Shown: one piece after another, positions 4,311 through 62,440 of the stretch
Position numbering within the stretch: the first letter of the stretch is position 1
How the letters are laid out: each line of letters begins with the position of its first letter
Origin: Cyclobacteriaceae bacterium
GTDB lineage: Bacteria; Bacteroidota; Bacteroidia; Cytophagales; Cyclobacteriaceae
Length of the DNA stretch: 64,000 bases
Assembly: GCA_035492075.1 (NCBI GenBank)
Contig: DATJJP010000030.1
Span: 4,076-68,075 of the forward strand
Direction: 5' to 3'
Program-made: the position numbers and the translations under genes
The notes under the pieces: generated by a model
What the model saw: only the letters and a program-made list of their open reading frames with translations
Databases searched by the model: none
What the model was told of the DNA's origin: nothing

Positions 4311-4322
4311 GCATCGTGATGC
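4311..4322. promoter_or_regulatory. dyad site 1 (GCATCGTGATGC, followed by GAATT)
   Basis: Perfect GCAT-N4-ATGC palindrome 39 nt upstream of the ATG at 4361. Confidence 0.5.
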
Positions 4323-4360
4323 GAATTGAGTGACTTTTGTGTACACTAAAACATGAAAAA

Positions 4361-4783
4361 ATGAAAAACAAAATTGTGACAATCGCTATAACAGGAGTTA
4401 TCGCTATGATGGGCATTTCAGTATCAGCCCAACAAGACAAGAAAGCGCAAAAAGCTCGAAAGGAACTTGAGGGAGCCAAGCAGGATCTTAAAGAAGCAAA
4501 GGTAGACTCTGCGGCCGATTTCCATCGATTTAAAAAAGAGGCGGAATTGCAGATCAGCGACAATCAAAAGAAAATTGATGAGCTAAAAGCAAAAAAATCT
4601 GACGAAAGTCAGGCGGTAAGGGAAGAATATGATAAAAAAGTGGCCGCTGTTGAAGTTCAGAATAATGACTTGAAAAAAAGAATCAAGGAATCAAACAATA
4701 CTAAAACAAATATGTGGACGTCCTTCAAACGCGGATTTCATAATGACATGGAAGCATTAGAAAAAGCCATCAGGGATATTTAA
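4361..4783 (+). CDS. secreted Lys/Glu-rich coiled-coil protein (hypothetical)
   Basis: Signal peptide MKNKIVTIAITGVIAMMGISVSAQQ followed by heptad-like charged helices. The track ORF begins at a TTG (4337), so the ATG at 4361 is the more likely start. A terminator follows. Confidence 0.65.
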   Translation: MKNKIVTIAITGVIAMMGISVSAQQDKKAQKARKELEGAKQDLKEAKVDSAADFHRFKKEAELQISDNQKKIDELKAKKSDESQAVREEYDKKVAAVEVQNNDLKKRIKESNNTKTNMWTSFKRGFHNDMEALEKAIRDI

Positions 4784-4805
4784 AATTAATCAAGCATTTT
4801 AAAAA

Positions 4806-4827
4806 AGGCCCGTTATGGGCTTTTTTT
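4806..4827 (+). terminator. rho-independent terminator
   Basis: AGGCCC-gttat-GGGCTT hairpin flanked by an A6 run and a T7 run, 23 nt after the stop at 4783. Confidence 0.7.
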
Positions 4828-4980
4828 GTATCAACTCTTGAAGCAACAGGGACATTGGTTTTACCATTTGGTTTACCAGCTGCCGTCGAGAGTTTCCAGA
4901 ATCGAAAAAAAACAAACTGAAAAATTCAGGATTTCTGATAGCGATAGTCATTCAGGGGCGCGCAACACTTAAGGTGTCTG

Positions 4981-5011
4981 AAAATAAAAAGACCCATCCG
5001 CCTGATGGGCC
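4981..5011 (-). terminator. minus-strand rho-independent terminator without an adjacent annotated gene
   Basis: On the minus strand this reads GGCCCATC-aggcg-GATGGGTC followed by TTTTTATTTT. The nearest upstream minus-strand CDS ends at 5360. Confidence 0.55.
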
Positions 5012-5359
5012 TCTTTATCTAAAATTAACCTAAATTGTAAAACATCTATGAATAGTTTCACTGTACAAAGGTGCTTTAGTAGCCGGATATCATAGTCATT
5101 CTAATGGTGTGAATTTTATCACTCATCTTCAGACTATCAGGATTAATTTTATACCACCAGTTCGCAAATGATGCAAGTCAGACGCGCGAAGCAGTGTCAT
5201 CTCCCTCAGAGTTTCTTATTGCAATGGAAAAGACACAGTAAATAGCTCTCCTTTCTGGAATGGCGCGTCATTTGTGAAAACAATAAGTGGTTTTTTGGAA
5301 GAGATATAAAACGCCAGGTTTTAACCTTCGTAACGGTTCAACCCAAAAATAATCGGGTC

Positions 5360-5986
5360 TTAAATGTATCTACGTCTGTGAGCAAGTTCTATTGCATCGG
5401 CCTTCTTGTTGACGTCCAGCTTGGAATAGATGTTCCTTATGTGTGTTTTCGTGGTGTCCCGTGAAATAAACAGCTGCTGTGAAATTTGAGAAGAACTGTG
5501 GCCTCGAGCCACTAAACCCAGAACTTCAAGCTCACGTCTTGTAAACGGAGTATCTGGATTTCTATGCAGATTTTGGATCACTTTCCGGGCAATTCTTGAA
5601 CTCAACGGGGATCCGCCCCTCACGATCTCCTCGATACCTAAAATTATTTCAACAAAATTTGCGCTTTTCAGAATGTAACCAGAGGCTCCGGCCCTAAGCG
5701 CAGCAATGACAACGCTATCTTCGTCCTGCGACGTCACTATTAATATTTCAACATCAGGAAGCTTTTCTTTTATTACCGAAATCTCGGCTATCCCTTGCCG
5801 GCCTGGTCCAACTATTTCCATAACCACCACATCAGGCTTAATCCTCAAAACATTCGACGACGCTTCATCCCAATCTGCATAGCAACCTCCAACAACAAAT
5901 CTGTCAGTGCCATCGACTAAATGCACGACGGAATTTTGCCAAATCTCGTCATGCTCTATGATTATAACTTTCTTCCTAACAAACAT
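5360..5986 (-). CDS. LuxR/NarL-family response regulator with atypical receiver (Glu at phospho-acceptor position)
   Basis: REC plus GerE-type HTH (RRELEVLGLVARGHSSSQISQQLFISRDTTKTHIRNIYSKL). The acceptor motif reads VVVMEIVGPG instead of LMDIxMPG. Start placed at MFVRKK (5986). Confidence 0.85.
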   Translation of the reverse strand: MFVRKKVIIIEHDEIWQNSVVHLVDGTDRFVVGGCYADWDEASSNVLRIKPDVVVMEIVGPGRQGIAEISVIKEKLPDVEILIVTSQDEDSVVIAALRAGASGYILKSANFVEIILGIEEIVRGGSPLSSRIARKVIQNLHRNPDTPFTRRELEVLGLVARGHSSSQISQQLFISRDTTKTHIRNIYSKLDVNKKADAIELAHRRRYI

Positions 5987-6107
5987 AGCGTTCTTTTTGA
6001 CTTGCTTCCTTTTTATCAAATGACTCCTGCCCCACGCAATTTGCCCTAAGAAGCAACTGTCCAAAATCTTCTTACAATTGTATTATTTGATAAGCAAGAA
6101 GTAAATC

Positions 6108-6119
6108 GCATGTCAATGT
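6108..6119. promoter_or_regulatory. dyad site 2, imperfect (AAATCGCATGTCAATGT)
   Basis: The left half-site AAATCGCAT is identical to sites 3 and 4. The right half is ATGT instead of ATGC. It lies about 120 nt upstream of the regulator start at 5986. Confidence 0.35.
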
Positions 6120-6290
6120 GAAAATAAAGCAGCCCGAGAAGCGAAGCCTCTAATAAAAAAGCATTCTCATTAATGATTAAGGGCGCCTGCATTAGCATTA
6201 ATGTGCTACCTGGCAAAACAATAATCACGCAAGCTTAAGGTCAACCTAACGATTTAAGAATTAAAATCCTTCGAGCTTTATATGCTAATC

Positions 6291-9997: not shown

Positions 9998-10345
9998 TTA
10001 AAAAATCATAAGTTTTAGGGCGTCCAACCCTAATTGATCTGCCAGAAAATCTAAGTTTAAAAACACCAATCCCAAATACCTAGCTGCACGACATGTCAAT
10101 TCTGGGTGCTTCTCCATCACGCAAAAAGAAAACGATAGAGGATTTTCTATCACTCCCAAGTTCGCATCTAAAACTAGCATGTGACGACCATTTTGGATGA
10201 AGACGTTACACGTGCATAAGTTGACACGTTTGTTGTCAACACAATCTATTGCTCTCGTCATTGCACCTATGTCGCAATCTTTGCTCACGAGCTTCCTGTT
10301 TGCCAATTCAAAACTGGGCTCTTTTCTGTTTAAATGAAATCGCAT
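9998..10345 (-). CDS. hypothetical Cys-rich ORF (doubtful)
   Basis: Only an open frame, with no recognisable motif. Its first four codons (MRFH) are part of the 22-bp inverted repeat and dyad site 3. Either the start is further in (M29, 10261) or the ORF is not real. Confidence 0.3.
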   Translation of the reverse strand: MRFHLNRKEPSFELANRKLVSKDCDIGAMTRAIDCVDNKRVNLCTCNVFIQNGRHMLVLDANLGVIENPLSFSFCVMEKHPELTCRAARYLGLVFLNLDFLADQLGLDALKLMIF

Positions 10346-10353
10346 CTACATGC
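10332..10353. repeat. left arm of 22-bp inverted repeat; contains dyad site 3 (GCATCTACATGC, 10342-10353)
   Basis: AAATGAAATCGCATctACATGC. The reverse complement of the right arm is AAATGAAATCGCATgaACATGC (20/22 identical). Confidence 0.8.
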
Positions 10354-10509
10354 TATTTTCGTAAATCGATGCGAGAATTTGTTGTAACCGTTTGCATCGT
10401 GAATACCTCTGCTTTTCCAAGTAAAAAAATGATGTAAGCAATTTCTCAATAAAAACGATTCTGGTTTTCTGAACCCTTTGTCAAGACAAGTGAATGCTTA
10501 ATTAAAAAA

Positions 10510-10531
10510 GCATGTTCATGCGATTTCATTT
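10510..10531. repeat. right arm of 22-bp inverted repeat; contains dyad site 4 (GCATGTTCATGC, 10510-10521)
   Basis: GCATGTTCATGCGATTTCATTT, 48 nt upstream of the CZB ATG at 10569. Confidence 0.8.
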
Positions 10532-10568
10532 GTCACTCGGTGCTACCAACTTTACAAATAAAGTAGGT

Positions 10569-10916
10569 ATGGCAAACTTTGATTTCTTGATGGCAAAACA
10601 AAAACACTTGAGTTGGAAATTTCGTCTCCGTGACTTTTTGGACGGAAGAGAATCTCTGACTTTGGAACAAGCCGTTTCTTATAGGGACTGTGACCTGGGC
10701 AAATGGCTTTACTCGGTAGGTTTTGAAAAATACAAAACCTACCCCGAAATGCAGGAACTAGAGAAAGTCCATATGACTTTACACGAAACTATTCGCCACA
10801 TCGTGGAATTGAAACATCGGGGGGAAGATATCAAGGCCAACGATGCTTTTCAAACAATTGAACCGATTTCCGATAAAATCATCAAGCTCCTGGACACAAT
10901 CAGCATGAAATCATAA
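10569..10916 (+). CDS. stand-alone CZB (chemoreceptor zinc-binding) domain protein
   Basis: KQKHLSWKFRLRDFLDG ... YRDCDLGKWLY ... VHMTLHETIRH reproduces the His/Cys zinc-ligand pattern of CZB four-helix bundles. Start placed at MANFDF. Confidence 0.8.
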   Translation: MANFDFLMAKQKHLSWKFRLRDFLDGRESLTLEQAVSYRDCDLGKWLYSVGFEKYKTYPEMQELEKVHMTLHETIRHIVELKHRGEDIKANDAFQTIEPISDKIIKLLDTISMKS

Positions 10917-11551: not shown

Positions 11552-12742
11552 CTATTGTTGTTGTTTCGCTATGAATATGAAGTCACTTCCACTTGGCTCG
11601 GGAGCAAAAGAACCGAATCGAGGTGATATTGTCAGCTTCTCTAGATGAGTAATTAGTTCAAACGTAGTAAGTATGCCATCGTCTCCTCCATAGGAAGCGA
11701 GAGATTCTAAAAAGCGCGCAGCGAATGGTGAGTGCTTTCCCGGAACTCCGTCAGAAACATATTCTTTTCCTCCTGACGTTAAGAATTTTCTGGTCCGCAG
11801 GCTTAGCTTACGTGCAATAAATTCGCTGTTGGAAGCCCGGTCAGTATCCTCCGAGCCACGAGTTCGCGAGATTACTGGATCAAGAGTTCCACCGTAACAC
11901 ACATCCATCATCAGAAAAATATGTTCAATGGGGATATTATTAATTACGCCCCGAAGTCGGTTGTGAGATATGTAAGAGTTTCGCGATGGATCTTTCCGTA
12001 AAGAGTTTTTAGTCACCACATAGCCCTCACCAAAAGTCTCGTCGAATTGACCGTGTCCAGCAAAGAACACAAGCAACTGATCTTGTGGTTTAAATTTTTT
12101 GTCATTATATGCTCTGAGTTTTTCCCATACTCGCTCGGTAGTGGCGTTTTCGACAATCTCCACCTCGAATCCGTACTTTTCTTGGAGCACTTTTGCAATT
12201 GCCTTTCCATCCTCAACTGGATTGACAAGATCGTCCCAATTGTCGTACTTGTCTGTAACGAACATCAACGCATGATCCTTTCGATCAATTAAAGCTGTTT
12301 CCGAGGCGAATCCACTACCGACCAAAATATCGCGATGGCTCGAAACTGTTGCCCCCTCAATATTAGAGGCTGTAACCTCCACAAAATTTGACCCCTTGTC
12401 AAGACTAATGGTTTGATGTAAGTGGTAGACACCCTCAACATTTTTAATATTGAACATTTTGCTCGCATAGACAACACCATCGGTACGCCCCCCCAAGCTG
12501 ACCTTTAGCTCCTTTAGGTTCAGCCGTGATTTTATTTCTACGTCAATATCTACCTTGCTTTCAGGGCTGGATGTATATTCCAGCCGTGGACTAACCCATT
12601 TGATCGCTGGAAGTTGATTTGAGTTGGGAAGTACACCTTCCTGTAAATTTAAATGCATTTCATTCGTTGTGCCTGATATCACTTGGCCCAACGAAACGGA
12701 AATTGAAAGCCACAGAATGAAAGCAAAGTTTAACTGTTTCAC
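11552..12742 (-). CDS. secreted caspase-family (peptidase C14) protease with N-terminal Ig-like domain
   Basis: Signal peptide MKQLNFAFILWLSISVSLGQ. Catalytic dyad context LLVFFAGHGQF (His) and IFLMMDVCYGG (Cys) at caspase-typical spacing. Confidence 0.85.
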   Translation of the reverse strand: MKQLNFAFILWLSISVSLGQVISGTTNEMHLNLQEGVLPNSNQLPAIKWVSPRLEYTSSPESKVDIDVEIKSRLNLKELKVSLGGRTDGVVYASKMFNIKNVEGVYHLHQTISLDKGSNFVEVTASNIEGATVSSHRDILVGSGFASETALIDRKDHALMFVTDKYDNWDDLVNPVEDGKAIAKVLQEKYGFEVEIVENATTERVWEKLRAYNDKKFKPQDQLLVFFAGHGQFDETFGEGYVVTKNSLRKDPSRNSYISHNRLRGVINNIPIEHIFLMMDVCYGGTLDPVISRTRGSEDTDRASNSEFIARKLSLRTRKFLTSGGKEYVSDGVPGKHSPFAARFLESLASYGGDDGILTTFELITHLEKLTISPRFGSFAPEPSGSDFIFIAKQQQ

Positions 12743-12763
12743 TTTTGAATGTTTTTTTTGTTA

Positions 12764-15700
12764 TCAATACATAATCAATTTTCCAGAATAAAATTGCGGA
12801 GGAGCGGAACCTGAATTAGTCTCAGCTCTAAAAAAATATAATCCAGGCTGAACCCTTCGTCCATCGGAGGTTTGGCCATCCCATATAATTTTACGGAGCC
12901 CTCGTTCCTTGCTAGTTTGATACAACTCCTTCACAATCATTCCTCTCAGGTCCAAAATTTGTAGTCTGTCTGTTGATGGTTGTTCATCGTTAGTAAAAGC
13001 AATTGGAATTGTAATCTGTCCATTTGACGGGTTAGGATTAGGCACCCCCAGTTGCACTTGGGTCGCCTCCGCCGCTCCCACTGAACTATAATATATTTTG
13101 AATTGTCGATTGTCGCCGTGAAAAGAGTATGCATTTATGGAAAGCATATCTGTTATGATATTCGCTTGCAGATCATGCAAAATCAATTCGCATCCACGCC
13201 GTTTTAATTGTTGCGAATCCCAGCTAATGTTGATACGTCCAGACTCTCCAGAATTCAATGAAAAAGTCCAAGTAAAAGAGTCTTGTGTTGGAACAATGTC
13301 TCGAGTGAATTTTGGAGTGAAATACTCTGGGTGATACGAATTCCATTCTAGGTAATTTAGAAATCGCGGCACGGTTAGATCATCAAACTCATCCTTACCT
13401 GCTTTAGCTTTAGGGTGCATACCCAATGCTCCAAGGGAGTTTTGAATTCCATTTTGTTCCACGGTGATCGGCATAACCCATGCGCCTTGTTCAACGAACT
13501 TATCGTCGCCTTTTTTAGTCATTCGTCCTCCTGGAATTATCTTGCTGGTCAAAGGTATCTTCAAACTCACGGCTTTATCTGCATGAACGAAGGCTCCGCT
13601 ATATTTTTCAAGACGAGTGGTGTCTTTAAATCCCCCCGTCTTCGGATTAAACACTTTTAATTGTCCAACTGAAGTCAAACTATTGAAATCCAGTATCTTA
13701 CTCCAATCAACATCAAACGGATATGGTGTTGCAATCTGATTCCAGCCTTGGTCGAGTTGAAGGACAAATTCGTTGCCTTGATAATTGTCAGGAGAAATCT
13801 GAGAACCGAACTTCAAATCTACTTGCTTCTTAGTGAGGAGCCAATAACTTTTCCCTCGTATAAACCCCGATTTGGAAAGCCCCTGATCTAGGTAATCTAC
13901 GTTTTCATTATTTTGATAGTGAACAAACCTCCACTTTTTAGGGTCATAGGTGCCAAGATCAGGGTTTGCTTCTAGAATTGCACCAATAGTGCCAGCTAAG
14001 TCATAAGGACTGGAAATCATCGTGTAATCCTTGACCGAAGCTCCAAACGAAGTACGGTTGATTGCAAAATTGTTTTGCTGTCGAATCCTATAGGTTGTAT
14101 TTACATCTGCTGGGCTTCTCTTTGACTTACCAGACTTATCCTGAACAGTTAAGTAAAATTCCAGCCCCATCTCGTCAAGCATGCTGGGATCCACGGTCCA
14201 TTGCGCTTGGCTCGTTTGGGGTCCTGAAAGGACTTTTGTCGCTTGTGAATAAGTAGGTTCAGCTATTTTCCTGTAAAATAGGGTTGCTGTGAGTGGGTAA
14301 AAATATCCCGCAACTGCTGCCGAAATCTGATCATTTGATACTGGAACACTTGGGGTTCCCAGTAAAATATCAAAAGGATTGGGACCGCCGTTGATCGGGC
14401 CGGTTGAAAATGGCTGCGTGTCTGAATAGGCTGAAACCCCGTTGGAATTTCCAGCACTTAGTCTCCAATAGTACGCTGTCCCAGGAGTCAATCCGGTGAG
14501 GTCCTGCCCTACGTAGCCATTAATTACTTTCGGCTTATAACCAACGAGTAAACTTGCATCCCCAAATGTATCATCGATGGAAACCTCAAGCCCGTAGTGA
14601 TCGGCACCAGTTACGGCCTCCCAGTCGAGATGAGCAGTAGTGGTAGTAGCGGTATTAGTTAAGTTAGTAGGAACATCTGGGATCGTAGTCCTCGACAAAC
14701 CCGCTGAGTAAGGAGAGTAAGTTCCATTAAATGCACGTACTTGAAAATCGTAAGATGTTGCAGATAATAGGCCTAAAACGGGACAATCTGTGGCAGTGGT
14801 ACCTGTACACGCATCGGTCCATGAAGCTTCTGTGCTCTTTTTAAACTGAATATCATACTTTGTAGCGGTTGGCACGCTCGGCCAAGTGATTGTAACCTGA
14901 TTTGCCGAAAAGCCCGCCGGAGAAATTCCTACCGGTGTCGCAGGGCTGGTAAGAATTGAGATTGAAGGATTCTCGGAGGAGTAAGGAGAAGAACCACTTG
15001 TGTTGATTGCGCTCACTCTATAATAGTAGATCGTGCCTGGACTCAAGCTCGAGATGACGGCATTCGCTCCAGTTCCACCAGGAATAGTTTGAGTTGACCC
15101 ACCAGGGAAACTGCTGTCGCTGGATAATTGAACTGAGTAATTGAGCACACCATCCGAACCACCCGAGGGAGCCGACCAGTTCGCAGTGAACTGTGTCTGG
15201 CCAATTGTCGCTGACGAAACGGCTGTTGCTGTAGGCGTTCCAGGAAGGGACAAAATTGTAGCAGGCGAAGAGAATGGCGAGTTGGTTCCATTGAAAGCAC
15301 TTACCTGAACATCATACTGTGTATTACTCATCAGTCCCGTAAGGGTGCAAGTTGTGGCTGATGTACGCGAGCATCCAGTTGACCATGTTCCCGAACCAAT
15401 AATCCGGTATCCGACATCGTATCCTGTCGCTGTCGCAATGCTCGCCCAACCGACAGTAGCTTGATTGGCGGAAAATGTCGTGGTGGAAATTCCCATCGGT
15501 GTAACAGGGCTGGTGAGCACCGAGATCGGAGGAGTTTCAGTAGAATAAGGTGAGGAGCCGCTCGTGTTGGCGGCGCTTACACGATAGTAATACACGGTAC
15601 CAGGAATCAGGCCTGTAATAGGTGTACTGGTACTTGTCCCCGCTGGAATTAGTTGTACTCCAGTTGTGAAAGCATTATCAGTTGCCGTCTGAACGGTATA

Positions 15701-17434
15701 AGTGAGCACTCCATTGCCCGAAGCCGCGAGCCAGTTAGCAGTAAAATGATCCTGGCCTATCGTCCCCAAGGAAGCAGCTGTTGCTGTGGGTGCGCTAGGA
15801 ACGGTGAGTGCACTATTCGAGATTGAAGAAGGTGAAACATTTCCATTGACATTGGCCGCTCGTACTCTGTAGTAGTAGATGGTATTAGGCTGCAGCCCAG
15901 CGCTTATTGTTATTGGGTAAGTAACGACATTTCCAACATCTAAATTATTGTATCCAGCGAGGAACGAAGCAAAACCTGGATCAGTGGAAACGTCAAGGTA
16001 ATATTTGGTTGCGCCCGTAGATGTTGACCAGCTTGCTACGAATGAGGTTTGAGTGACCGAAGAGGGTCCGTTGGCCGTGGGCGTTGCCGGGGTGGTGATG
16101 AACGACACGGAAGGACTGGTATAACTTGACGAGCCAGTCACATTATTCGCTTTTACATGGTAGTAATAAGTTGTGCCGGGGGTCAGGGTCGATATGGTGG
16201 TACTTAAACCACTCACTGTGGCGGACAGTACGGACGCACTGAAATCGCTCAGTGGCGATACCTGGGCTGTATAGCTGGCAGCACCGCCAACGGGGGCCGA
16301 CCAGTTTGCAGTGAACTGTGCCTGACCGATCGCCGAGGCCGATGGTGAAGTGGGTGCGTCAGGAAGCGTTAAGACTGTAGTGTAGCCAATGGAGTACGGA
16401 GACGAACCCGTCCCATTGGTCGCCAATACACGGTAGTAATAGCTGGTATTTGAGCTCAGGGTCGTAAAAAGTGCGCTTAGAGTGGAGATAGTTTGTGTTG
16501 ACCCGCTCGAGAAGGTGTTGTCTGGAGAAAGTTGGACTGTGTAGGAAGTGATTGCTCCGTTGCCCGAGGCGGCCGGCCAGTTGGCCGTCAATTGCGTCTG
16601 ACCGATTGACGACCCGGGCGATGGCGTTGGTGCACCGGGCAGTGTCAGTACTGTCGTGTATGTGCCCGAGTACGGTGAAGGCCCGCTGTTGTTGGTCGCC
16701 AATACGCGGTAATAATAGTTGGTATTTGAACTCAGGCCTCCAATAGTTGTACTGGTACTACTCACAGGGGTAACCGTTAGTAGACCTGTGGTGAAACCAT
16801 TATCCGTGGCTACTTGAACAGTGTAAGAGAGCGTACCATCCAAACCTCCAGCAGGAGCCAACCAGTTTGCAGTAAACTGTGTCGTACCGATTGCATTAGC
16901 ACTCAAAGGAGTGGGTACGCCAGGCCTCGTCAAGATATTAACCAAACCAGAATTTGAAGCCGTTGTCGTCGACTGCTCTTGAAAACCCGTGGGTGTACTA
17001 GGAGGCGGTTGTTGGGGACCCAGGGCCTGATAACATGTCACCAAGCCATCTACGCTCAAATAGTAGCGTGTGTTAGGAGTTAAACCCGTAAGACTGCAGT
17101 TGGTGGCGATGGACGTTGAAGTTCCATTTCCGACAGTACAGTCTTTGGTCAACGGCCCAGTCGAAGTGTTGTACCAGCCATAATAGGTATCTGCTTTTAA
17201 AGAACTGGACCAAGTGAGGTCGATCGATGTTGAATTTGGTGAGTTATATGCCGTAATACTGAAACTGCCAGGTGGAGGAAGAGGATCTTCATACATAAGA
17301 TCGCCTCCGTTCCAAAGGCACCGCGCTTGCGAAAAAGATGGCGGTGCAAGGGCAACGGAGAGTGCAAAACACGCAAGCACGATCCTAGTAATCTTAACAA
17401 CCTTAATGGGCATCAACTTGTTTTGGGCAGTCAT
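12764..17434 (-). CDS. giant cell-surface protein: about 11 fibronectin type III modules, a ~450-aa unknown domain and a T9SS C-terminal sorting domain
   Basis: Signal peptide, then repeated ...FTANW...YTVQ...T.YYYRV... FN3 units. The last ~85 aa (NPSNGQITIP...LQILDLRGMIVKEL...GLYFFRAET...GKLIMY) match the type A Por/T9SS CTD pattern. An alternative start is M8 (17413). Confidence 0.9.
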   Translation of the reverse strand: MTAQNKLMPIKVVKITRIVLACFALSVALAPPSFSQARCLWNGGDLMYEDPLPPPGSFSITAYNSPNSTSIDLTWSSSLKADTYYGWYNTSTGPLTKDCTVGNGTSTSIATNCSLTGLTPNTRYYLSVDGLVTCYQALGPQQPPPSTPTGFQEQSTTTASNSGLVNILTRPGVPTPLSANAIGTTQFTANWLAPAGGLDGTLSYTVQVATDNGFTTGLLTVTPVSSTSTTIGGLSSNTNYYYRVLATNNSGPSPYSGTYTTVLTLPGAPTPSPGSSIGQTQLTANWPAASGNGAITSYTVQLSPDNTFSSGSTQTISTLSALFTTLSSNTSYYYRVLATNGTGSSPYSIGYTTVLTLPDAPTSPSASAIGQAQFTANWSAPVGGAASYTAQVSPLSDFSASVLSATVSGLSTTISTLTPGTTYYYHVKANNVTGSSSYTSPSVSFITTPATPTANGPSSVTQTSFVASWSTSTGATKYYLDVSTDPGFASFLAGYNNLDVGNVVTYPITISAGLQPNTIYYYRVRAANVNGNVSPSSISNSALTVPSAPTATAASLGTIGQDHFTANWLAASGNGVLTYTVQTATDNAFTTGVQLIPAGTSTSTPITGLIPGTVYYYRVSAANTSGSSPYSTETPPISVLTSPVTPMGISTTTFSANQATVGWASIATATGYDVGYRIIGSGTWSTGCSRTSATTCTLTGLMSNTQYDVQVSAFNGTNSPFSSPATILSLPGTPTATAVSSATIGQTQFTANWSAPSGGSDGVLNYSVQLSSDSSFPGGSTQTIPGGTGANAVISSLSPGTIYYYRVSAINTSGSSPYSSENPSISILTSPATPVGISPAGFSANQVTITWPSVPTATKYDIQFKKSTEASWTDACTGTTATDCPVLGLLSATSYDFQVRAFNGTYSPYSAGLSRTTIPDVPTNLTNTATTTTAHLDWEAVTGADHYGLEVSIDDTFGDASLLVGYKPKVINGYVGQDLTGLTPGTAYYWRLSAGNSNGVSAYSDTQPFSTGPINGGPNPFDILLGTPSVPVSNDQISAAVAGYFYPLTATLFYRKIAEPTYSQATKVLSGPQTSQAQWTVDPSMLDEMGLEFYLTVQDKSGKSKRSPADVNTTYRIRQQNNFAINRTSFGASVKDYTMISSPYDLAGTIGAILEANPDLGTYDPKKWRFVHYQNNENVDYLDQGLSKSGFIRGKSYWLLTKKQVDLKFGSQISPDNYQGNEFVLQLDQGWNQIATPYPFDVDWSKILDFNSLTSVGQLKVFNPKTGGFKDTTRLEKYSGAFVHADKAVSLKIPLTSKIIPGGRMTKKGDDKFVEQGAWVMPITVEQNGIQNSLGALGMHPKAKAGKDEFDDLTVPRFLNYLEWNSYHPEYFTPKFTRDIVPTQDSFTWTFSLNSGESGRINISWDSQQLKRRGCELILHDLQANIITDMLSINAYSFHGDNRQFKIYYSSVGAAEATQVQLGVPNPNPSNGQITIPIAFTNDEQPSTDRLQILDLRGMIVKELYQTSKERGLRKIIWDGQTSDGRRVQPGLYFFRAETNSGSAPPQFYSGKLIMY
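14400..17281 (-). repeat. intragenic tandem FN3-coding repeats (about 270-300 bp units)
   Basis: Repeated peptide blocks such as LTLPGAPTP..IGQTQ(L/F)TANW and SSNT(N/S)YYYRVLATN recur along the ORF. Boundaries are approximate. Confidence 0.8.
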
Positions 17435-17447
17435 GTTATATGGCTAA

Positions 17448-18191
17448 TCATTTAGGTAAAATGGGACCAGGCAAATCGGGTTCAGTATTTTTCGAACTCA
17501 AAGCAAAAATCCCAGTGCTGATAATCGCGCCAGCAGCAAATTTGAATACCAGTGGAATCCGTCGGCGAATTGAAAAGATACCGGTGTAGACAACCTCATC
17601 ACTGTTTTTGGTATCGCTTACACGCAACCGATAGTTTTCCCCTACGCGCACGTGAGCAGGGAACTTCAGACCATGGTGCCCAACGTTGGCAATGTTGGGA
17701 AAAGAGGTCACTACCTTGTCGTTTTGAAGCAGTTCAAAATTCAGTATGTTTTGTGCAGAGCCCCCGCTCCAGAGAATATTATAGTTGCGCCCGCGAACAA
17801 CAGATTTGTATTTTTCAAACCCATTTAGCTTTAAAAACGGAACAAACACCGTCGCTCGCAATTCGACAGATACTTTTCCATTGAAAGAGCCACCAAGTTC
17901 TTTCCTGGGGTTCCATATGATTTTTTTGTCACGCCCTGGGCGTACCTCGAATCCTAGGTCTCCGCTTATGTTAATTAAAGGGGCGAGAAAATTGTCCTGC
18001 GAAAAATAGGCGCGGACGACATACAATCGGCCTGGCGTAGAGTCTGTTAAACTATAATGAATTATTACGAGATCATTGTTGTATTCGATTTGACCGATAA
18101 TAATACGTTGCTGCGCCGAGCAACCTTCCATGGCAAGAAGTAAAGAAGCAGTAAAAAGAATAAGTGCTTGAATCCAGAACTTAATATCCAT
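17448..18191 (-). CDS. hypothetical type I membrane protein (signal peptide, two beta-rich domains, C-terminal TM anchor)
   Basis: MDIKFWIQALILFTASLLLAMEGCSA signal/lipobox-like N-terminus, and a C-terminal helix LVFKFAAGAIISTGIFALS. Lies 13 nt upstream of the FN3 gene. The track start at 18200 is a TTG, so the ATG at 18191 is preferred. Confidence 0.7.
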   Translation of the reverse strand: MDIKFWIQALILFTASLLLAMEGCSAQQRIIIGQIEYNNDLVIIHYSLTDSTPGRLYVVRAYFSQDNFLAPLINISGDLGFEVRPGRDKKIIWNPRKELGGSFNGKVSVELRATVFVPFLKLNGFEKYKSVVRGRNYNILWSGGSAQNILNFELLQNDKVVTSFPNIANVGHHGLKFPAHVRVGENYRLRVSDTKNSDEVVYTGIFSIRRRIPLVFKFAAGAIISTGIFALSSKNTEPDLPGPILPK

Positions 18192-18197
18192 TGAATA

Positions 18198-18205
18198 CAA
18201 AACTA
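18198..18205 (-). promoter_or_regulatory. candidate -7 box TAGTTTTG
   Basis: Exact TAnnTTTG on the minus strand, 6 nt before the ATG at 18191. This implies a very short leader. Confidence 0.3.
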
Positions 18206-18230
18206 CCCGAAGGTTAAAAAGCAGGTAATC

Positions 18231-18242
18231 GCATATTCATGC
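18231..18242. promoter_or_regulatory. dyad site 5 (AATCGCATATTCATGCGGTT)
   Basis: Perfect GCAT-N4-ATGC core, with near-perfect 20-bp symmetry. Sits between the response regulator stop (18296) and the start of the anchored-protein/FN3/caspase operon (18191). Confidence 0.55.
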
Positions 18243-18295
18243 GGTTTATTTGTTCGAAATGCGTGTGGGTTGAATGAATCGAGCTGAACTTCAGT

Positions 18296-18928
18296 TCATC
18301 GCTTCCTTAATGCCTTTGAGATTGCTTCTGCCTTCGAATTAACGTGCAATTTCTCGTAGATTTTTCTAATGTGTGAACGGACAGTGTCAATGGATATGAA
18401 AAGTTTGTCACCAATCATCTTATAACTGTGGCCTTCAATTATAAGATTAAGCACATCTTGTTCCCTTGCCGAAATGAGGCTCATGGTACTCGTATTTTCC
18501 TTTGGTAGGGAAAACGATGACAGGACTTTTTTAGCCACACTTGGGGTCATCGGTGCACCGCCGTCTATGGCATCCTTAATAAATTCTACAATTTTGGGTG
18601 GAGGTGTTTTTTTTAGAATATAGCCATCTGCCCCGTATTTCAAGGCGTCAAATATTTTCTCGTTGTCTTCAAAGACGGTCAGCATCAATACTTTGATGTT
18701 ATCGCCCATCGTCTCTTTTGCTATTCTAAGTCCTTCAAGCCCATCAGTGCCTGGCATCTCGATATCCATCAGCAGCACTTGCGGTTTCAACCTTTGCAAT
18801 TCGTTCTCAATGTTATCACAGTTCCCAAACATACCAACGACCCTAAAGTCGTTTGAGACATGTAGCAAGAGCCTTAGGCCTTCGGCCAACTCATTATTAT
18901 CTTCGTATATAACTATTTCAGTCATCAA
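18296..18928 (-). CDS. NarL/LuxR-family response regulator (canonical receiver)
   Basis: REC with YEDNNE acidic pocket, LLMDIEMPGTDG phospho-acceptor, LTVFED and YILKK. GerE-type HTH REQDVLNLIIEGHSYKMIGDKLFISIDTVRSHIRKIYEKL. Confidence 0.92.
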   Translation of the reverse strand: MMTEIVIYEDNNELAEGLRLLLHVSNDFRVVGMFGNCDNIENELQRLKPQVLLMDIEMPGTDGLEGLRIAKETMGDNIKVLMLTVFEDNEKIFDALKYGADGYILKKTPPPKIVEFIKDAIDGGAPMTPSVAKKVLSSFSLPKENTSTMSLISAREQDVLNLIIEGHSYKMIGDKLFISIDTVRSHIRKIYEKLHVNSKAEAISKALRKR

Positions 18929-21633: not shown

Positions 21634-21759
21634 GGGGTCTTTTTTACATTAGCTAAAGGGTGTGCGATTAATTTCAAACGACTCGTAGCGGGAAACTCTT
21701 GAACAGCATTTGAAACGAATACAGAACAAAGCTGCCTAAAGTACAGGTTCTGCTCAATA

Positions 21760-21771
21760 GCATATTCATGC
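21760..21771. promoter_or_regulatory. dyad site 6 (GCATATTCATGC)
   Basis: Perfect palindrome 127 nt upstream of the PAS kinase start (21633). Confidence 0.45.
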
Positions 21772-21948
21772 TGTTTCCGTGTTCTTGCTTTCCATTTAAT
21801 CACTGAATATGCTTTTCAAGCAAGGTTATTTGGACGTTTGCTATACCTTTTTGGGGAGGCGGTGCACATCGGATGGTGTGAGTCTATTTGGCAACCATCA
21901 ACTATTTATTCCTTATCACATTAGTTCGCTCAGACGTGACCAAAAAGC

Positions 21949-21960
21949 GCATCGTCATGC
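21949..21960. promoter_or_regulatory. dyad site 7 (GCGCATCGTCATGC)
   Basis: Perfect GCAT-N4-ATGC in the 693-bp divergent intergenic region. Confidence 0.45.
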
Positions 21961-22321
21961 TATTTAGGTTAACCATTGATTCCCCCAATTTTGTTTTGCA
22001 TGGTGTACCTTTAGTCAGGTTTTATTTGTTTGGGTGCCGAGTCTAGTTAAAGATTCGGCACTTCACTTCGATTTACAGTTTTGGTACCCAAAAATCTTTT
22101 CACTGAATCATGGGTAACAGAGTCGTCAGTTTTTTGCTAACCACGACTTGCTTGGCGATCGGAATTGTGCTGATTGTGGCCGTAGGCTTGTCGATTATGC
22201 TAATGTTCGTTTTAGACAGGATAAAGACCAGACAATTTTCGTTGGCACAACACGAAAAGACCTAGACGATCCGCGAGGGTCGTGGAAAAGCCCGTTGTCA
22301 AAACATAATCGAACTAGGTAG

Positions 22322-58385: not shown

Positions 58386-58410
58386 TAGCAGCAGGTCAAA
58401 AACCCAGGAA

Positions 58411-58457: not shown

Positions 58458-58478
58458 GTTTCTTTAAGCTGCTATTTA

Positions 58479-59555: not shown

Positions 59556-60452
59556 CTAAGCCAGCAAATTCCCGATCCCGAAAAGCAACACAAATAACAA
59601 CGTTGACAACGCCATCTGCTTTAGCATCGGATCAAGTTTCTCGGACGGCAAAGTCGACACCTTTATTCCATTGACGAAAAGTAAGGGTGCAGACAATAAA
59701 AAGAGGAATTGAATCGGAGAACGATAGTTCATCCCCACAAAAAACGAGGCAAACAAAATACCGCTTATCAAAAGAACCCAATGATAAACTCTGGCTTTGT
59801 CTCTTCCGATCCGCACAGGAATAGAAAATTTTCCTGCCGTTCGATCTGATTCGATGTCGCGTATGTTGTTAATGTTAAGCACCGCGATAGAGAAAAAACC
59901 GCAGCTAAGTGCAGGCAACGCGAAACTCCAGTCAAAAACTTTGGTGAAAAGATAAAGCGATCCCATCACACCAACCAACCCAAAAAATATCAACACGGAA
60001 AGATCACCAAGCCCGATGTAGCCATAGGGTTTTCTACCGACGGTGTAGGCAATCGCGGCGACAATAGAAAGCAAGCCCAGCCCAAAAAAATACAGAAGGG
60101 GTTTCAGTTCAAGGCCAAAAGAAATGTACAACAACGACAGTCCGCTCGCCAAGCAAAGGACTATGAAAATGAAAATCGCTTTTTTCATCTGGTCCGCGGA
60201 AATTGCGCCCGACTGCACGGCACGTTGTGGACCCACTCGCTCTGCGTGGTCGGCACCGTTGACGGTATCGCCATAGTCATTTGAAAGATTGGAAAGTATC
60301 TGGAGGAATATGGTCGTGGCACAGCAGAGGAAAAAAATCGCCCCGTTGAATTTGTTCTGCGAGGCGGCGAGAAACCCGCCCATCCCAATGCAAGACAAGG
60401 AAAGCGGAAGAGTGCGGAGACGAAAGGCCGACAGCCAGATTTTTACGTTCAT
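59556..60452 (-). CDS. menA: 1,4-dihydroxy-2-naphthoate polyprenyltransferase
   Basis: UbiA-fold protein with NDYGD...D motif and NNIRDIESD second Asp-rich motif. Confidence 0.9.
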   Translation of the reverse strand: MNVKIWLSAFRLRTLPLSLSCIGMGGFLAASQNKFNGAIFFLCCATTIFLQILSNLSNDYGDTVNGADHAERVGPQRAVQSGAISADQMKKAIFIFIVLCLASGLSLLYISFGLELKPLLYFFGLGLLSIVAAIAYTVGRKPYGYIGLGDLSVLIFFGLVGVMGSLYLFTKVFDWSFALPALSCGFFSIAVLNINNIRDIESDRTAGKFSIPVRIGRDKARVYHWVLLISGILFASFFVGMNYRSPIQFLFLLSAPLLFVNGIKVSTLPSEKLDPMLKQMALSTLLFVLLFGIGNLLA

Positions 60453-60466
60453 ACTTGTGAAGCAGA

Positions 60467-60994
60467 TTAATTCACAATTTTATCAATAATTTTTCGACTT
60501 TCAGGATCAATCCCTGCTTTAAAAAAAAACACTTCTCGACCGTCTTCGCTGACGAGATACTTCGCAAAATTCCAGTCCGGTTTTTGGCCTGTCTTTGCTT
60601 CGAGCCATTGGTACAACGGATGCTGATCCTTTCCCTTAACAGAAATCTTTTCGAACATGGGAAAGGTGACACCATAATTAATTTCGCAGAATTCAGCAAT
60701 CTCCTTATTGCTGCCCGGCTCTTGATGAAGGAAATTATTTGCAGGGAATCCGAGCACAGTCACTTTGTCGCGAAACTGCTCGTGGACTTTCTCAAGTCCC
60801 TCGTACTGCGGCGTGAACCCGCATTTAGACGCCGTATTTACCAACAAAAGTTTTTTTCCCCGAAATTGAGCAAAGTCAACCTCCTTGCCTGCAAGGCTGT
60901 TGACTTTGAAATCATAAATTGAATTGGAAACGCTCCTTTTTTCCGAGGACGAGAAAAGCCCCGTGAAAAAGGAAACGAGATGAGCCAGATTCAT
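60467..60994 (-). CDS. glutathione peroxidase (Cys type), paralog 2
   Basis: NTASKCGFTPQY, LGFPANNF and WNFAKYLV motifs. Confidence 0.92.
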   Translation of the reverse strand: MNLAHLVSFFTGLFSSSEKRSVSNSIYDFKVNSLAGKEVDFAQFRGKKLLLVNTASKCGFTPQYEGLEKVHEQFRDKVTVLGFPANNFLHQEPGSNKEIAEFCEINYGVTFPMFEKISVKGKDQHPLYQWLEAKTGQKPDWNFAKYLVSEDGREVFFFKAGIDPESRKIIDKIVN

Positions 60995-61491
60995 TTCAGC
61001 TCGCTCACGATCTGGTCATCCAGTGGCTTTACTTTTGAATTGAAGAATTTCACCGTACCGTCGGGCTTCACTAAATATTTACAGAAATTCCAGGTAGGCT
61101 CCTGGCCCGTCTTTTCTTTCAACCAAGCATACAGCGGATGTTGATCTTCGCCTTTCACAGAAATCTTTTCGAACATCTGAAAAGTAACGCCGTACTTGGA
61201 TTTGCAGAAATCACTGATCTCGGCAGCGGTGCCGGGCTCTTGTTGTCCAAAATTATTTGCGGGGAATCCAAGCAACGTCACCTTGTTGCCGTACAGTTCA
61301 TGCAATTTTTGAAGATCTGTGTATTGAGGTGTGTAACCGCACTTGGAGGCGACGTTCACGATCAATAGGGTCTTTCCTTTATATTGTGAAAAGTCGATCT
61401 CTTTTCCGTCGAGAGAATTCATCTTCATATCATAGAGAGATGAAGATGCGGATGCCAACATCGCTATGAAAAGGGCTGCAATTAGTTTCAT
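60991..61491 (-). CDS. glutathione peroxidase (Cys type) with signal peptide, paralog 1
   Basis: MKLIAALFIAMLASASS signal, NVASKCGYTPQY, LGFPANNF and WNFCKYLV. 4-bp overlap with paralog 2. Confidence 0.92.
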   Translation of the reverse strand: MKLIAALFIAMLASASSSLYDMKMNSLDGKEIDFSQYKGKTLLIVNVASKCGYTPQYTDLQKLHELYGNKVTLLGFPANNFGQQEPGTAAEISDFCKSKYGVTFQMFEKISVKGEDQHPLYAWLKEKTGQEPTWNFCKYLVKPDGTVKFFNSKVKPLDDQIVSELK

Positions 61492-61576
61492 AAGTGGATA
61501 GGTTTATTTTGATACGAACACAAATAAATGAAAAAAGTTTGCGTTTGCGAATCAAAAAGGGACAGGTGGCTGTGAC

Positions 61577-62128
61577 TTACGGATCAATCTCTTGTAATTG
61601 AGTCCATTCCCGTAGGGTGATTCTAAAAATATTGACTTGGTTCCCCTTATATACGGTAGCTTTCGCTAGGTTCATTCCGTTCTTCCGGGCAACATTTTCA
61701 GATGGATAGTTACTTAGGCTGATGATTGAAATCAAGGATTCAGAAAAGCGATTTCGGAAAGCCGAATCACGGCAGAGCGTCGCCGCTTCACTCGCGTACC
61801 CTTTACCCCAAAACCTTGGCAGCAGTGAATATCCGATTTCCAGCTCCTGAATTTCGTCTACCGTTTGCACCAACAAGCCGCAATGGCCAACGAGCCTGCC
61901 GCTATGCTTTTCCAATACCGCATTCATTCCGCCTCGCCCATCCTTATAACGACCGAATTGTTTTTCATACCATTTGGTACATTCTTTCTCCGCACTTTCT
62001 TTCTCCTCAATCCAGTGAATAGACGTGGATGGGTCCTTAAAGAACTCCAGCCAATCCACAAAATCTGATTCCTGAATCTTTCGGAAGACCAAACGCTCCG
62101 TTTCACTACCATCGAGAAGAAATTTCAT
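61577..62128 (-). CDS. GNAT family N-acetyltransferase (RimJ/RimL-like)
   Basis: LVFRKI...; acetyl-CoA motif RFWGKGYASEA. Start placed at MKFLLDG. Confidence 0.82.
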   Translation of the reverse strand: MKFLLDGSETERLVFRKIQESDFVDWLEFFKDPSTSIHWIEEKESAEKECTKWYEKQFGRYKDGRGGMNAVLEKHSGRLVGHCGLLVQTVDEIQELEIGYSLLPRFWGKGYASEAATLCRDSAFRNRFSESLISIISLSNYPSENVARKNGMNLAKATVYKGNQVNIFRITLREWTQLQEIDP

Positions 62129-62211
62129 GAAATACTTTTTAGGTACAGGTATGGGAATCAAGTGTCAAATTTAAACGTCGTTACTAATGCCTAAAAACTC
62201 ATTTCTTAATC

Positions 62212-62440
62212 CCACGCGCACTGAACTCTAGGGTGGCACTCATAATGCCACGCGCTTTTTTCCATTCCGCAAAGCGCGTCTCGCGTACTAAGGACTTAAC
62301 GTTACTTTTCACGAGGTCAGACGTGCCAATCCCCATAAATCGAGGTAAAGATGAAATCAATTTTCGCATGTTCATGCGATAGATTTATAAAATCTCTACG
62401 GTTTTTTTTGCGAAAAGGATGTCCCCAAAAATCCACGCGC
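62212..62440 (+). promoter_or_regulatory. three copies of CCACGCGC (62212-62219, 62248-62255, 62433-62440) in the TonB-receptor leader region
   Basis: The identical 8-mer occurs three times within 230 bp. Each copy is preceded by A/T-rich sequence (aatC-, aatG-, aaat-). Confidence 0.4.
62376..62387. promoter_or_regulatory. dyad site 8 (TTCGCATGTTCATGCGAT)
   Basis: The 15-nt string GCATGTTCATGCGAT (62376-62390) is identical to that of site 4 (10510-10524). It lies 150 nt upstream of the TonB-dependent receptor ATG. Confidence 0.5.

Follow-up and report, generated by a model that had tools for sequence, protein, structure and literature searches.

LuxR and TraR bind as dimers, through their LuxR-type helix-turn-helix (HTH) domains, to an 18-20 bp inverted repeat (the lux and tra boxes) centred about 42-44 bp before the transcription start and overlapping the upstream promoter element, and they activate by contacting RNA polymerase. 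Both proteins are switched by the binding of an acyl-homoserine lactone. ComA of Bacillus subtilis (Firmicutes), a NarL-family activator, binds TTGCGG-N4-CCGCAA abutting the promoter on its upstream side, at sites that include an additional third half-site, and NarL binds 7-2-7 pairs of heptamers that are scattered at variable distances from the promoter.

The window considered here, a 64-kb stretch of Bacteroidota DNA, contains a dyad, ATC[G/A]CAT-N4-ATG[C/T]GAT, that is the putative operator of RR2, a NarL/FixJ-family response regulator; we give this reading a probability of about 70%. The proposed site resembles the lux and tra boxes in being a class-II-type inverted repeat for a LuxR-type HTH dimer, but RR2 has a phospho-receiver domain in place of the lactone switch, the dyad sequence differs, and the window promoters are of the Bacteroidota sigma-A -33/-7 type rather than the -35/-10 type. 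With the ComA system it shares a NarL-family regulator and an inverted repeat with a 4-bp spacer upstream of the promoter, whereas the half-sites differ in sequence and are 7 bp long instead of 6 bp; to our knowledge, an exact 22-bp spacing to the -7 box has not been described as a feature of ComA sites. The 7-bp half-sites arranged as an inverted repeat are also found with NarL, although the spacer is 4 bp here and 2 bp there, the half-sites are unrelated and the RR2 dyad is locked at one position. RR2 matches NarL of E. coli (structure 1A04) at E = 3e-24 with the same domain architecture, and its closest solved structure is VraR (5HEV, E = 6e-26). VraR, likewise a NarL-family regulator, turns on its own operon by way of an inverted repeat upstream of it, as is proposed for RR2, but systems of the VraR/LiaR type are three-component envelope-stress systems of Firmicutes with a different motif, and nothing seen here points to an envelope-stress signal. 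The switch proposed for RR2 would be of an ordinary bacterial kind, yet it is apparently undescribed so far for these Bacteroidota regulators.

A recurring palindrome outside genes

The recurring 18-bp palindrome is a genuine signal. A scan of both strands for GCAT-N4-ATGC (GCATNNNNATGC) yields seven exact matches in the window, at 4311, 10342, 10510, 18231, 21760, 21949 and 62366, the same number as in the original prediction. Six of the positions given there are correct, and the last is shifted: the match lies at 62366-62377 (18-mer 62363-62380) and not at 62376-62387. Similarly, the example of extended symmetry, AATCGCATATTCATGCGGTT, is present as written (18227-18246) but belongs to the fourth listed site rather than the fifth, and the reported 15-nt identity between the sites at 10510 and 62366, GCATGTTCATGCGAT, is found. 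The dyads at 10339 and 10507 have ATGCGATTTCATTT in common.

All seven matches are non-coding according to a generous ORF map, which leaves 5,460 nt (8.5%) of the window outside genes; the sites at 10342 and 10510 overlap just two ORF calls, at 5' ends that are over-extended. The probability that seven of seven randomly placed matches land within 8.5% of the sequence is about 3e-8. Dinucleotide-preserving shuffles contain on average 1.27 matches (sd 1.28), and seven were attained in 1 of 100 shuffles. The computed count upholds the enrichment outside genes that had been claimed by eye. No other of the 2,304 palindromes of the form 4-N(0-8)-4 occurs as often between genes as GCAT-N4-ATGC (6-7 times; the runner-up has 3), and GC-matched control palindromes average 1.09 matches in total and 0.14 between genes. 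When the extended dyad ATCGCAT-N4-ATGCGAT is sought with up to three mismatches, the window gives nine matches against 3.6 expected. Eight of these are the sites listed originally, among them the copy at 6108, which is imperfect as claimed; the ninth, at 52836, lies within coding sequence. The half-sites listed at 10369 and 10394 find no support, each being without a partner half-site and without an in-register -7 box. The sites and neighbouring features are given in Table 1.

Table 1. Dyads, -7 boxes and relevant genes of the window, in order of position.
Feature	Positions	Strand	Remarks
Dyad AACGCATCGTGATGCGAA	4308..4325	+	Out of register
RR1, atypical NarL-type regulator, helix SRDTTKTHIRNIYSKL	5360..5986	-	Glu replaces phospho-accepting Asp
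Imperfect dyad TTCACATTGACATGCGAT (- strand reading)	6105..6122	-	Upstream of RR1
-7 box CAGTTTTG	10309..10316	-	Predicted start ~10304; doubtful ORF 9998-10345 (no Pfam match)
Dyad ATAGCATGTAGATGCGAT (- strand reading)	10339..10356	-	Canonical geometry, divergent from CZB promoter
Dyad AAAGCATGTTCATGCGAT	10507..10524	+	Canonical geometry, toward CZB gene; -7 box exactly 22 nt downstream
-7 box CAACTTTA	10547..10554	+	Predicted start ~10559, 10 nt before ATG at 10569
Small CZB (chemoreceptor zinc-binding) domain protein	10569..10916	+	Predicted target
Gene run: caspase-domain protein 11552-12742, FN3-repeat protein 12764-17434, lipoprotein 17448-18191	11552..18191	-	Predicted target
-7 box TAGTTTTG	18198..18205	-	Predicted start ~18193, 2 nt before ATG at 18191
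Dyad ACCGCATGAATATGCGAT (- strand reading)	18228..18245	-	Canonical geometry, toward lipoprotein/FN3 T9SS/caspase gene run
RR2, NarL/FixJ-family response regulator (REC + GerE HTH), recognition helix SIDTVRSHIRKIYEKL	18296..18925	-	Proposed cognate regulator
Histidine kinase, UhpB/NarQ-like catalytic core	18985..20028	-	
PAS histidine kinase	20158..21633	-	First gene of run ending in RR2
-7 box CAGCTTTG	21727..21734	-	Predicted start ~21722, 89 nt before ATG at 21633
Dyad ACAGCATGAATATGCTAT (- strand reading)	21757..21774	-	Canonical geometry, upstream of PAS-kinase/kinase/RR2 run
Dyad AGCGCATCGTCATGCTAT	21946..21963	+	Canonical geometry, toward + strand
-7 box CAATTTTG	21986..21993	+	Predicted start ~21998
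Dyad TTCGCATGTTCATGCGAT	62363..62380	+	Closest to consensus; toward TonB-dependent receptor gene at 62537

Promoter spacing and the recognition helix

At five of the eight window sites (10339, 10507, 18228, 21757 and 21946) a Bacteroidota sigma-A -7 box (nAnnTTT[G/A]) follows the dyad downstream, always at a distance of exactly 22 bp. The composite pattern, CAT-N4-ATG followed by 4 nt, 22 nt and the box, has exactly five matches on both strands of the window, all at sites of the original prediction, while shuffles average 0.19 and never exceed 3. The -7 box of Bacteroidota sigma-A, TAnnTTTG, occupies positions -12 to -5 (PMC9723704), and the predicted transcription starts rest on this placement. 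A dyad that ends 22 bp before the box would therefore lie between about -52 and -35, centred near -43.5, a class-II activator geometry that points to activation. Read toward the box, the dyads here and in related loci invariably have ATGCGAT or ATGCTAT as their proximal half-site; the distal one is more degenerate.

The other three sites deviate. At 62363 and 6105 the -7 boxes are weaker: at 22 nt the former shows no more than TTTTTTTG (62403-62410), where the A of the box is missing, and the latter has TACAATTG (6075-6082) at the same distance with one mismatch. The dyad at 4308 has a -7 box, GACTTTTG (4332-4339), just 6 nt off and would thus extend over roughly -36 to -19 of the promoter in question; in this overlap with a core promoter it would repress, if it functions at all.

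The comparative set consisted of 160 loci of other Bacteroidota encoding RR2 homologues with 42-54% identity; the best reached 52-54%, and a close relative of the source lineage was not found. The same dyad recurs in a subset of these loci. The spacing to the box is exactly 22 nt in about 46 of 52 sites from genome loci, and in a test blind to the sequence of the dyad, 30 of the 60 near-perfect 7-4-7 palindromes had spacing 22, with hardly any at the other spacings from 10 to 35. The 80 metagenome loci reproduced the result: spacing 22 accounted for 39 composites, the other spacings tested for 3-13 each. In 72 of 80 genome loci, the gene for the RR2 homologue is preceded by one for a homologue of the 18985-20028 kinase. 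In the closest genome homologue (L002), the kinase-regulator pair is preceded by ATAGCATGAATATGCTAT, nearly identical to the dyad at 21757. Genome loci from Chryseolinea, Cyclobacteriaceae and Ohtaekwangia carry ATCGCATGAnnATGCGAT about 70-73 nt upstream of the regulator ATG, overlapping the stop codon of the preceding kinase gene, and additional dyad copies in related loci lie 35-72 nt before the start codons of downstream operons. Unlike these Cytophagales loci, the window has no dyad at the kinase-RR2 junction, so autoregulation of RR2 would rest on a site 2.8 kb upstream.

What ties the dyad to this particular regulator? The recognition helix of RR2 carries DTVR, as do the regulators of related loci in which the dyad reads ATC[G/A]CAT-N4-ATG[C/T]GAT. 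Of the 72 loci with a DTVR helix, 35 contain the composite of dyad and -7 box; of the 88 others, none does (Fisher p = 1.8e-15). About half of the DTVR loci are without the strict composite, many of them being contigs of 1-3 kb or members of a DTVRG subclass. Other helix classes have different 7-4-7 dyads at the same position. Regulator-adjacent half-sites are ATCGCAT (42), ATCACAT (5) and ATAGCAT (3) for helix class D-R-S-R, to which RR2 belongs, GTCATTG or TTCATTG for class A-N-T-S, and ACTACTA, CTCACTA or ATCACCA for other classes. The helix residues that vary (R183, S184 and R187 in RR2) align with K188, V189 and K192 of NarL, which we take to be the base-contacting positions in the NarL-DNA structure. 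The original proposal of an operator for a dimeric HTH regulator thus finds support in three results that, like the motif enrichment, were computed directly: the dyad is conserved alongside the regulator family, it covaries with the recognition helix, and its distance to the -7 box is fixed.

Proposed activation by RR2 and its rivals

In alignments with VraR and NarL, RR2 retains the phospho-accepting Asp, and it would be phosphorylated by the kinases encoded directly upstream. The phosphorylated dimer would bind the dyad with one LuxR-type HTH per 7-bp half-site, and in the five window promoters the dyad would replace the -33 element. Through its promoter-proximal subunit the dimer would then touch RNA polymerase and, in the manner of class-II activators, stimulate transcription, switching on the RR2 operon and several neighbouring genes. 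Binding, its dependence on phosphorylation, the transcription starts and the sign of regulation are what we infer from sequence in this scheme.

Both GerE/LuxR-type regulators, the only proteins with a GerE-type HTH within the window, had been named as candidates; RR2 holds up well, and RR1 is the weaker of the two. RR2 is preferred because the helix of RR1 is different and a Glu stands in for its phospho-accepting Asp. It is rather unlikely that the dyad is bound mainly by the non-phosphorylatable RR1, or by both proteins in competition. The RR1 helix, of the related class D-K-T-R, has D, T, H, I and R in common with the RR2 helix at several positions and could bind the same sites, and an imperfect dyad lies upstream of its own gene. 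However, RR1 is just 34% identical to RR2, its helix class was not seen among the 160 loci examined for the dyad, and the conserved association concerns RR2-type regulators with a helix exactly like that of RR2. RR1 may instead be a target or a competitor of RR2.

An unrelated regulator, be it for instance the AraC-type protein at 8905-9741 or some global factor whose gene lies beyond the window, is an improbable owner of the sites. The window does encode other regulators, and the visible part of the genome is 64 kb, but in other genomes the dyad accompanies the kinase-regulator pair and varies along with the recognition helix of that regulator. No AraC homologue was found in the RR2-homologue loci, and the usual targets of AraC-type proteins are direct or asymmetric repeats. 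Could the palindromes act as RNA, in terminators or regulatory stem-loops? They can fold into a 7-bp stem closed by a 4-nt loop, and the copy at 18227-18246 is flagged as terminator-like on the + strand; that strand, however, has no gene end there, and the other copies are unflagged. Moreover, the predicted starts lie downstream of the dyads, which would thus be untranscribed from those promoters, and a base-pair-exact spacing to the -7 box is a property of DNA. Half-sites also vary independently (ATCACAT with ATGCGAT), producing A-C mismatches in the sense RNA, and Rfam gave no match, so that a hairpin function is very improbable. That the copies arose by chance, or are left over from a small repeated or mobile element, is scarcely credible: the one shuffle in 100 with seven matches and the 12-15 identical bases shared within two site pairs speak for this, but every copy is intergenic, the likeness ends at the dyad and -7 box save for a short flank common to 10339 and 10507, and the same composite recurs in distant genera beside a homologous regulator.

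If RR2 acts at the dyad as proposed, its predicted targets are its own PAS-kinase/kinase/regulator run (positive autoregulation), the lipoprotein/FN3 T9SS/caspase run and the CZB-domain gene, together with the transcript divergent from the latter and a transcript that begins near 21998 on the + strand. Probable further targets are the TonB-dependent receptor gene and RR1. Within the second of these runs, the 12764-17434 gene product has 1,556 aa, with FN3 repeats and a T9SS C-terminal sorting domain, and the mRNA from the 18198 promoter would be nearly leaderless, as its predicted start almost abuts the ATG. The -7 box at 21986 is followed by a structured stretch of 130 nt, and a gene for an MFS sugar transporter begins about 330 nt downstream.

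Recurrence and placement of the dyad

A scan of the window for the core GCATNNNNATGC returned seven exact matches (4311, 10342, 10510, 18231, 21760, 21949 and 62366), against a mean of 1.27 core matches in dinucleotide-preserving shuffles, where a count of seven was reached in 1 of 100. All seven lie in non-coding DNA, which under a deliberately generous ORF map comes to only 5,460 nt (8.5% of the window); two of them merely touch the starts of over-extended ORF calls. The enrichment of the motif in non-coding DNA, claimed in the original prediction from reading by eye, is thus borne out. With an intergenic count of 6-7, GCAT-N4-ATGC ranks first among all 2,304 4-N(0-8)-4 palindromes, the runner-up having three, and matched-GC control palindromes average 0.14 intergenic matches. 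The inverted repeat expected of a site for an HTH dimer is present as a 7-4-7 dyad at eight sites. When up to three mismatches to ATCGCAT-N4-ATGCGAT are allowed, the matches are the seven core sites, the imperfect copy at 6105-6122 and a single coding match at 52836. The latter, ATCCCACGGGCATGTGAT at 52836-52853 (+), is followed exactly 22 nt 3' by CATTTTTG and falls within an 889-aa gene on the opposite strand; this weak look-alike is probably a chance match.

Some details needed correction. The last core, placed at 62376-62387, was off by ten and lies at 62366-62377; the 20-mer AATCGCATATTCATGCGGTT, assigned to site 5, belongs to the site at 18231; and the additional half-sites proposed at 10369 and 10394 have neither a partner half-site nor a -7 box in register.

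Promoter geometry and the individual sites

When the sites are oriented, an nAnnTTT[G/A] octamer matching the Bacteroidota sigma-A -7 box (TAnnTTTG) is found exactly 22 nt past the 18-mer. This spacing is kept at five window sites, listed as canonical in the table, and at about 46 of 52 sites in the genome loci. These loci come from a set of 160 (80 genome, 80 metagenome) in other Bacteroidota that encode homologues of RR2, the NarL/FixJ-type response regulator of the window. No RR2 relative exceeded 54% identity (best 52% in genomes, 54% in metagenomes), so the set represents distant homologues across the phylum. The composite of dyad and -7 box at 22-nt spacing has exactly five matches on both strands of the window, all at sites of the original prediction, while shuffled windows average 0.19 matches and never exceed 3. 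A PWM built from the regulator-upstream sites of other genomes likewise has five of these sites, all intergenic, as its top five window matches. The matrix is over-fitted, with a shuffled-window maximum score averaging 7.3; its individual scores therefore carry little weight and the composite pattern was relied on instead.

The same spacing emerges from a sequence-blind test, in which only the palindromicity of the 18-mer was scored, spacing by spacing, relative to -7 boxes close to the start of the regulator gene. Near-perfect palindromes occurred in 30 of 60 cases at spacing 22, in four at 21, in one at 28 and otherwise in none (spacings 10-35). The 80 metagenome loci bear this out: they have 39 composites at spacing 22, and the other spacings examined gave 3-13.

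Given that the Flavobacterium -7 box covers -12 to -5 (PMC9723704), the dyad would extend from about -52 to about -35 and be centred near -43.5. This predicted position is where the -33 element would otherwise sit, and the sequence at -36 to -33, read directly from the sites, is ATTT, ATTA, ATTG or ATAC, not TTTG. A spacing fixed to the base pair would be expected of an activator that touches RNA polymerase, whereas a repressor would have no such requirement. In the window and the related loci, the half-site nearest the -7 box is always ATGCGAT or ATGCTAT and the distal one is looser, an asymmetry that fits an activator contacting the polymerase. The operator assignment, the transcription starts and the sign of regulation are all computational predictions.

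LuxR and TraR act as class-II activators at lux and tra boxes, which are dyads of 18-20 bp centred near -42 to -44, and ComA binds an inverted repeat whose spacer is 4 bp. The predicted RR2 arrangement resembles the lux/tra-box layout and shares the 4-bp spacer with ComA. Differently to these systems, it combines a phospho-receiver input with Bacteroidota -33/-7 promoters and another half-site sequence.

Dyad sites of the window (named by 18-mer start; canonical, -7 box at 22-nt spacing), with predicted transcription starts, and the associated signalling genes
Feature	Position	Strand	Dyad and -7 box	Predicted start	Faces
Dyad	4308	+	out of register, box 6 nt away	~4344	secreted protein, ATG 4361
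RR1 gene	5360-5986	-			
Dyad	6105	-	imperfect dyad, box TACAATTG	~6070	RR1
Dyad	10339	-	canonical	~10304	product without assignment
Dyad	10507	+	canonical	~10559	CZB gene, ATG 10569
Dyad	18228	-	canonical	~18193	lipoprotein run, ATG 18191, nearly leaderless
RR2 gene	18296-18925	-			
Kinase gene	18985-20028				
Dyad	21757	-	canonical	~21722	PAS-kinase / kinase / RR2 run (predicted autoregulation)
Dyad	21946	+	canonical	~21998	structured leader or small RNA; MFS transporter 330 nt on
Dyad	62363	+	best dyad, weak box TTTTTTTG	~62415	TonB-dependent receptor

The dyad at 4308 would overlie its promoter from about -36 to about -19 and could be repressing or may be non-functional. In several dyad promoters the predicted start lies 2-10 nt before the ATG, giving nearly leaderless mRNAs (18189-18205 (-) in the window and the regulator genes of Cytophagales loci). 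The divergent sites 10339-10356 and 10507-10524 have ATGCGATTTCATTT in common, in inverted orientation. Because of this shared inverted repeat, the ORFs called mechanically at 9998-10345 (-) and 10512-10916 (+) both have MRFHL as their first residues; these N-termini are repeat artefacts, and the CZB gene in fact starts with the ATG at 10569. The doubtful ORF 9998-10345 contains a terminator-like hairpin of 12 pairs with a T-run behind it (10128-10157 (-)), which suggests that this ORF is not real and that the 10339 (-) transcript is short. A small RNA from this promoter was considered and rejected, as the predicted 190-nt transcript (10115-10304) is not unusually structured (z = +0.38). Downstream of the 21946 (+) promoter, the stretch 21998-22130 (+) folds unusually stably, at -36.4 kcal/mol (z = -3.0), and contains a 13-bp hairpin at about 22032-22064. 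It has no match in Rfam and may act as a small RNA or as the structured leader of the MFS transporter and PfkB kinase genes. The 62363 dyad is immediately followed by another perfect palindrome, AGATTTATAAAATCT (62381-62395), and then by eight T in a row.

Recognition helix and candidate regulators

Which protein would bind the dyad? RR1 and RR2, the two candidates named in the original prediction, are the only GerE/LuxR HTH proteins in the window. RR2 is a generic NarL/FixJ-family regulator (Response_reg, 5e-20; GerE, 8e-16) whose closest solved structures are VraR, NarL and DesR, and the Asp of its LLMDIEMPG motif coincides in alignment with the one that accepts phosphate in VraR and NarL, which would allow switching by a kinase. 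In RR1 this residue is replaced by Glu (VVVMEIVGPG), and RR1 is probably an atypical response regulator that acts independently of phosphorylation. Both proteins have receiver domains, and the N-terminal autoinducer-binding domain of quorum-sensing LuxR-type regulators was found in neither. In NCBIfam, no named family scores above its cut-off for RR2, the kinases or the targets, and no equivalog reaches the cut-off for RR2.

The recognition helix of RR2 is SIDTVRSHIRKIYEKL. Loci whose regulator carries the helix S[I/L]DTVR[S/T]HIRKIYEKL have the dyad ATC[G/A]CAT-N4-ATG[C/T]GAT, whereas regulators with other helices have different 7-4-7 dyads in the same position. Thus, helix SYATVNTHVSHIY goes with GTCATTGGaaCCAATGAC, SFPTVNFHLKNIY with ACTACTAAnnTTAGTAGT, SYDTVHSHIRKIY with ATCACCATaaATGGTGAT and SYYTVNTHVKNIY with CTCACTAAATTTAGTGAG. 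Each of these alternative dyads has its own helix and lies 22 bp from a -7 box; the loci concerned are L053, L061-L063, L075 and L154-L159; L054 and L066; L028; and L015. Of the 160 loci, 72 have DTVR in the helix and 35 of these carry the strict composite; none of the remaining 88 does (Fisher p = 1.8e-15). When classes are defined by four helix positions, class D-R-S-R, to which RR2 belongs, has the regulator-proximal half-sites ATCGCAT (42), ATCACAT (5) and ATAGCAT (3), and class A-N-T-S has GTCATTG (16) and TTCATTG (4), with no crossover from one class to another among the 160 loci. The varying residues of RR2, R183, S184 and R187, align with K188, V189 and K192 of NarL, the residues that make base contacts in the NarL-DNA complex.

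The only serious alternative is binding by RR1, either as a competitor of RR2 or as an additional binder. The helix of RR1 (SRDTTKTHIRNIYSKL) differs from that of RR2, the two proteins share 34% identity, and RR1 carries Glu where the phospho-accepting Asp should be, which makes RR2 the better candidate. Binding by another regulator does not fit, since it conflicts with the covariation of helix and dyad. A repeat element or chance does not explain why the same composite recurs beside a homologous regulator in distant genera. As to an RNA hairpin or terminator, only one of the eight dyads is flagged as terminator-like. That one lies on a strand where no gene ends, the dyads are upstream of the predicted transcription starts and the two half-sites vary independently; this reading was rejected on strand, position and spacing. 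Rfam gave no match at gathering score anywhere in the window. The covariation of dyad and helix and the co-occurrence with RR2 homologues support the proposal that the dyad is the operator of a local LuxR-type response regulator, here predicted to be the NarL/FixJ-type RR2.

Related loci and a possible shared grammar

Of the 80 genome loci, 72 have a homologue of the kinase at 18985-20028 immediately before the regulator gene. Only this kinase-regulator pair is kept: tblastn of the window proteins against the 80 genome loci found none of the window target genes conserved. In Chryseolinea, Cyclobacteriaceae and Ohtaekwangia loci, ATCGCATGAnnATGCGAT stands 70-73 nt upstream of the regulator ATG, its left half-site overlapping the final codons and stop of the kinase gene (…P-I-A-TGA). 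In Cytophagales, one stretch of DNA would thus provide C-terminal codons, stop codon and operator, and the spacer often starts with GA at these sites because the left half-site runs into the kinase stop codon. The reading CCC ATC GCA TGA (P-I-A-stop) is seen in L009, L010, L013, L018, L019, L021, L041 and other Cytophagales loci; in L041 the overlapping dyad is at 9928-9945, about 70 nt upstream of the regulator start.

Further copies in the related loci lie 35-72 nt before the start codons of downstream operons, whose products are lipoproteins, a YARHG-domain protein and large proteins of the TIG, FG-GAP or SBBP type; one of the large proteins has a T9SS sorting domain. This is the same theme as the lipoprotein / FN3 / caspase run of the window. 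In L002, the locus of the closest genome homologue (Chitinophagaceae, 52%), ATAGCATGAATATGCTAT sits between the divergent kinase-regulator pair and a lipoprotein operon, and is almost identical to window site 21757 (ACAGCATGAATATGCTAT on the - strand). The result is a concrete predicted regulon for an uncharacterised two-component system of an uncultured Bacteroidota lineage, and the targets predicted in the window and related genomes are for the most part lipoproteins and large adhesin-like substrates of the type IX secretion system.

A response-regulator dimer on a palindrome beside a promoter is a textbook mechanism, and the apparent family-wide promoter grammar and specificity code would be more interesting by-products than the operator itself. 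We see about an even chance that a large Bacteroidota NarL-type subfamily shares one rigid grammar, in which an 18-bp dyad of 7-4-7 form precedes the sigma-A -7 box by exactly 22 bp and the half-sites of each branch are set by helix residues. The stop codon of the partner kinase may often form part of the dyad, and three or four helix residues may set the branch half-sites (ATCGCAT, GTCATTG, ACTACTA, ATCACCA and others). If true, the specificity of these regulators would be readable as a code, and the subfamily would offer naturally orthogonal activator-promoter pairs in a phylum whose mechanisms of transcription activation are poorly understood. The fixed 22-bp spacing would be a simple rule for recognizing activator-dependent promoters of this kind in Bacteroidota, and the covariation of helix and half-site suggests a route to re-targeting regulators or building orthogonal switches there. 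The literature searched holds no account of a shared dyad / 22-bp promoter grammar in Bacteroidota, and no relevant account of the motif, of a Bacteroidota NarL-type operator or of RR2-subfamily operators, although its incomplete coverage makes this weak evidence of novelty; matches to the half-site strings were primer sequences.

The window belongs to a Bacteroidota metagenome contig; it has promoters of the -7 type and encodes a TonB-dependent receptor and a T9SS C-terminal sorting domain. The RR2 gene is on record only in a JGI metagenome contig of 9.8 kb. At least six of the eight dyad sites lie within its first 22 kb, amid signalling genes: RR1, a histidine kinase, an AraC-type regulator and the CZB-domain gene, then the run of lipoprotein, FN3-repeat T9SS protein and caspase-domain protein, and the run of PAS-kinase, kinase and RR2. 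Tandem glutathione peroxidase genes overlapping by 4 nt (60467-61491 (-)) adjoin a GNAT acetyltransferase gene. Over the FN3-repeat gene (14001-18000) the GC content is 0.48-0.50, compared with about 0.41 in the flanking signalling genes.
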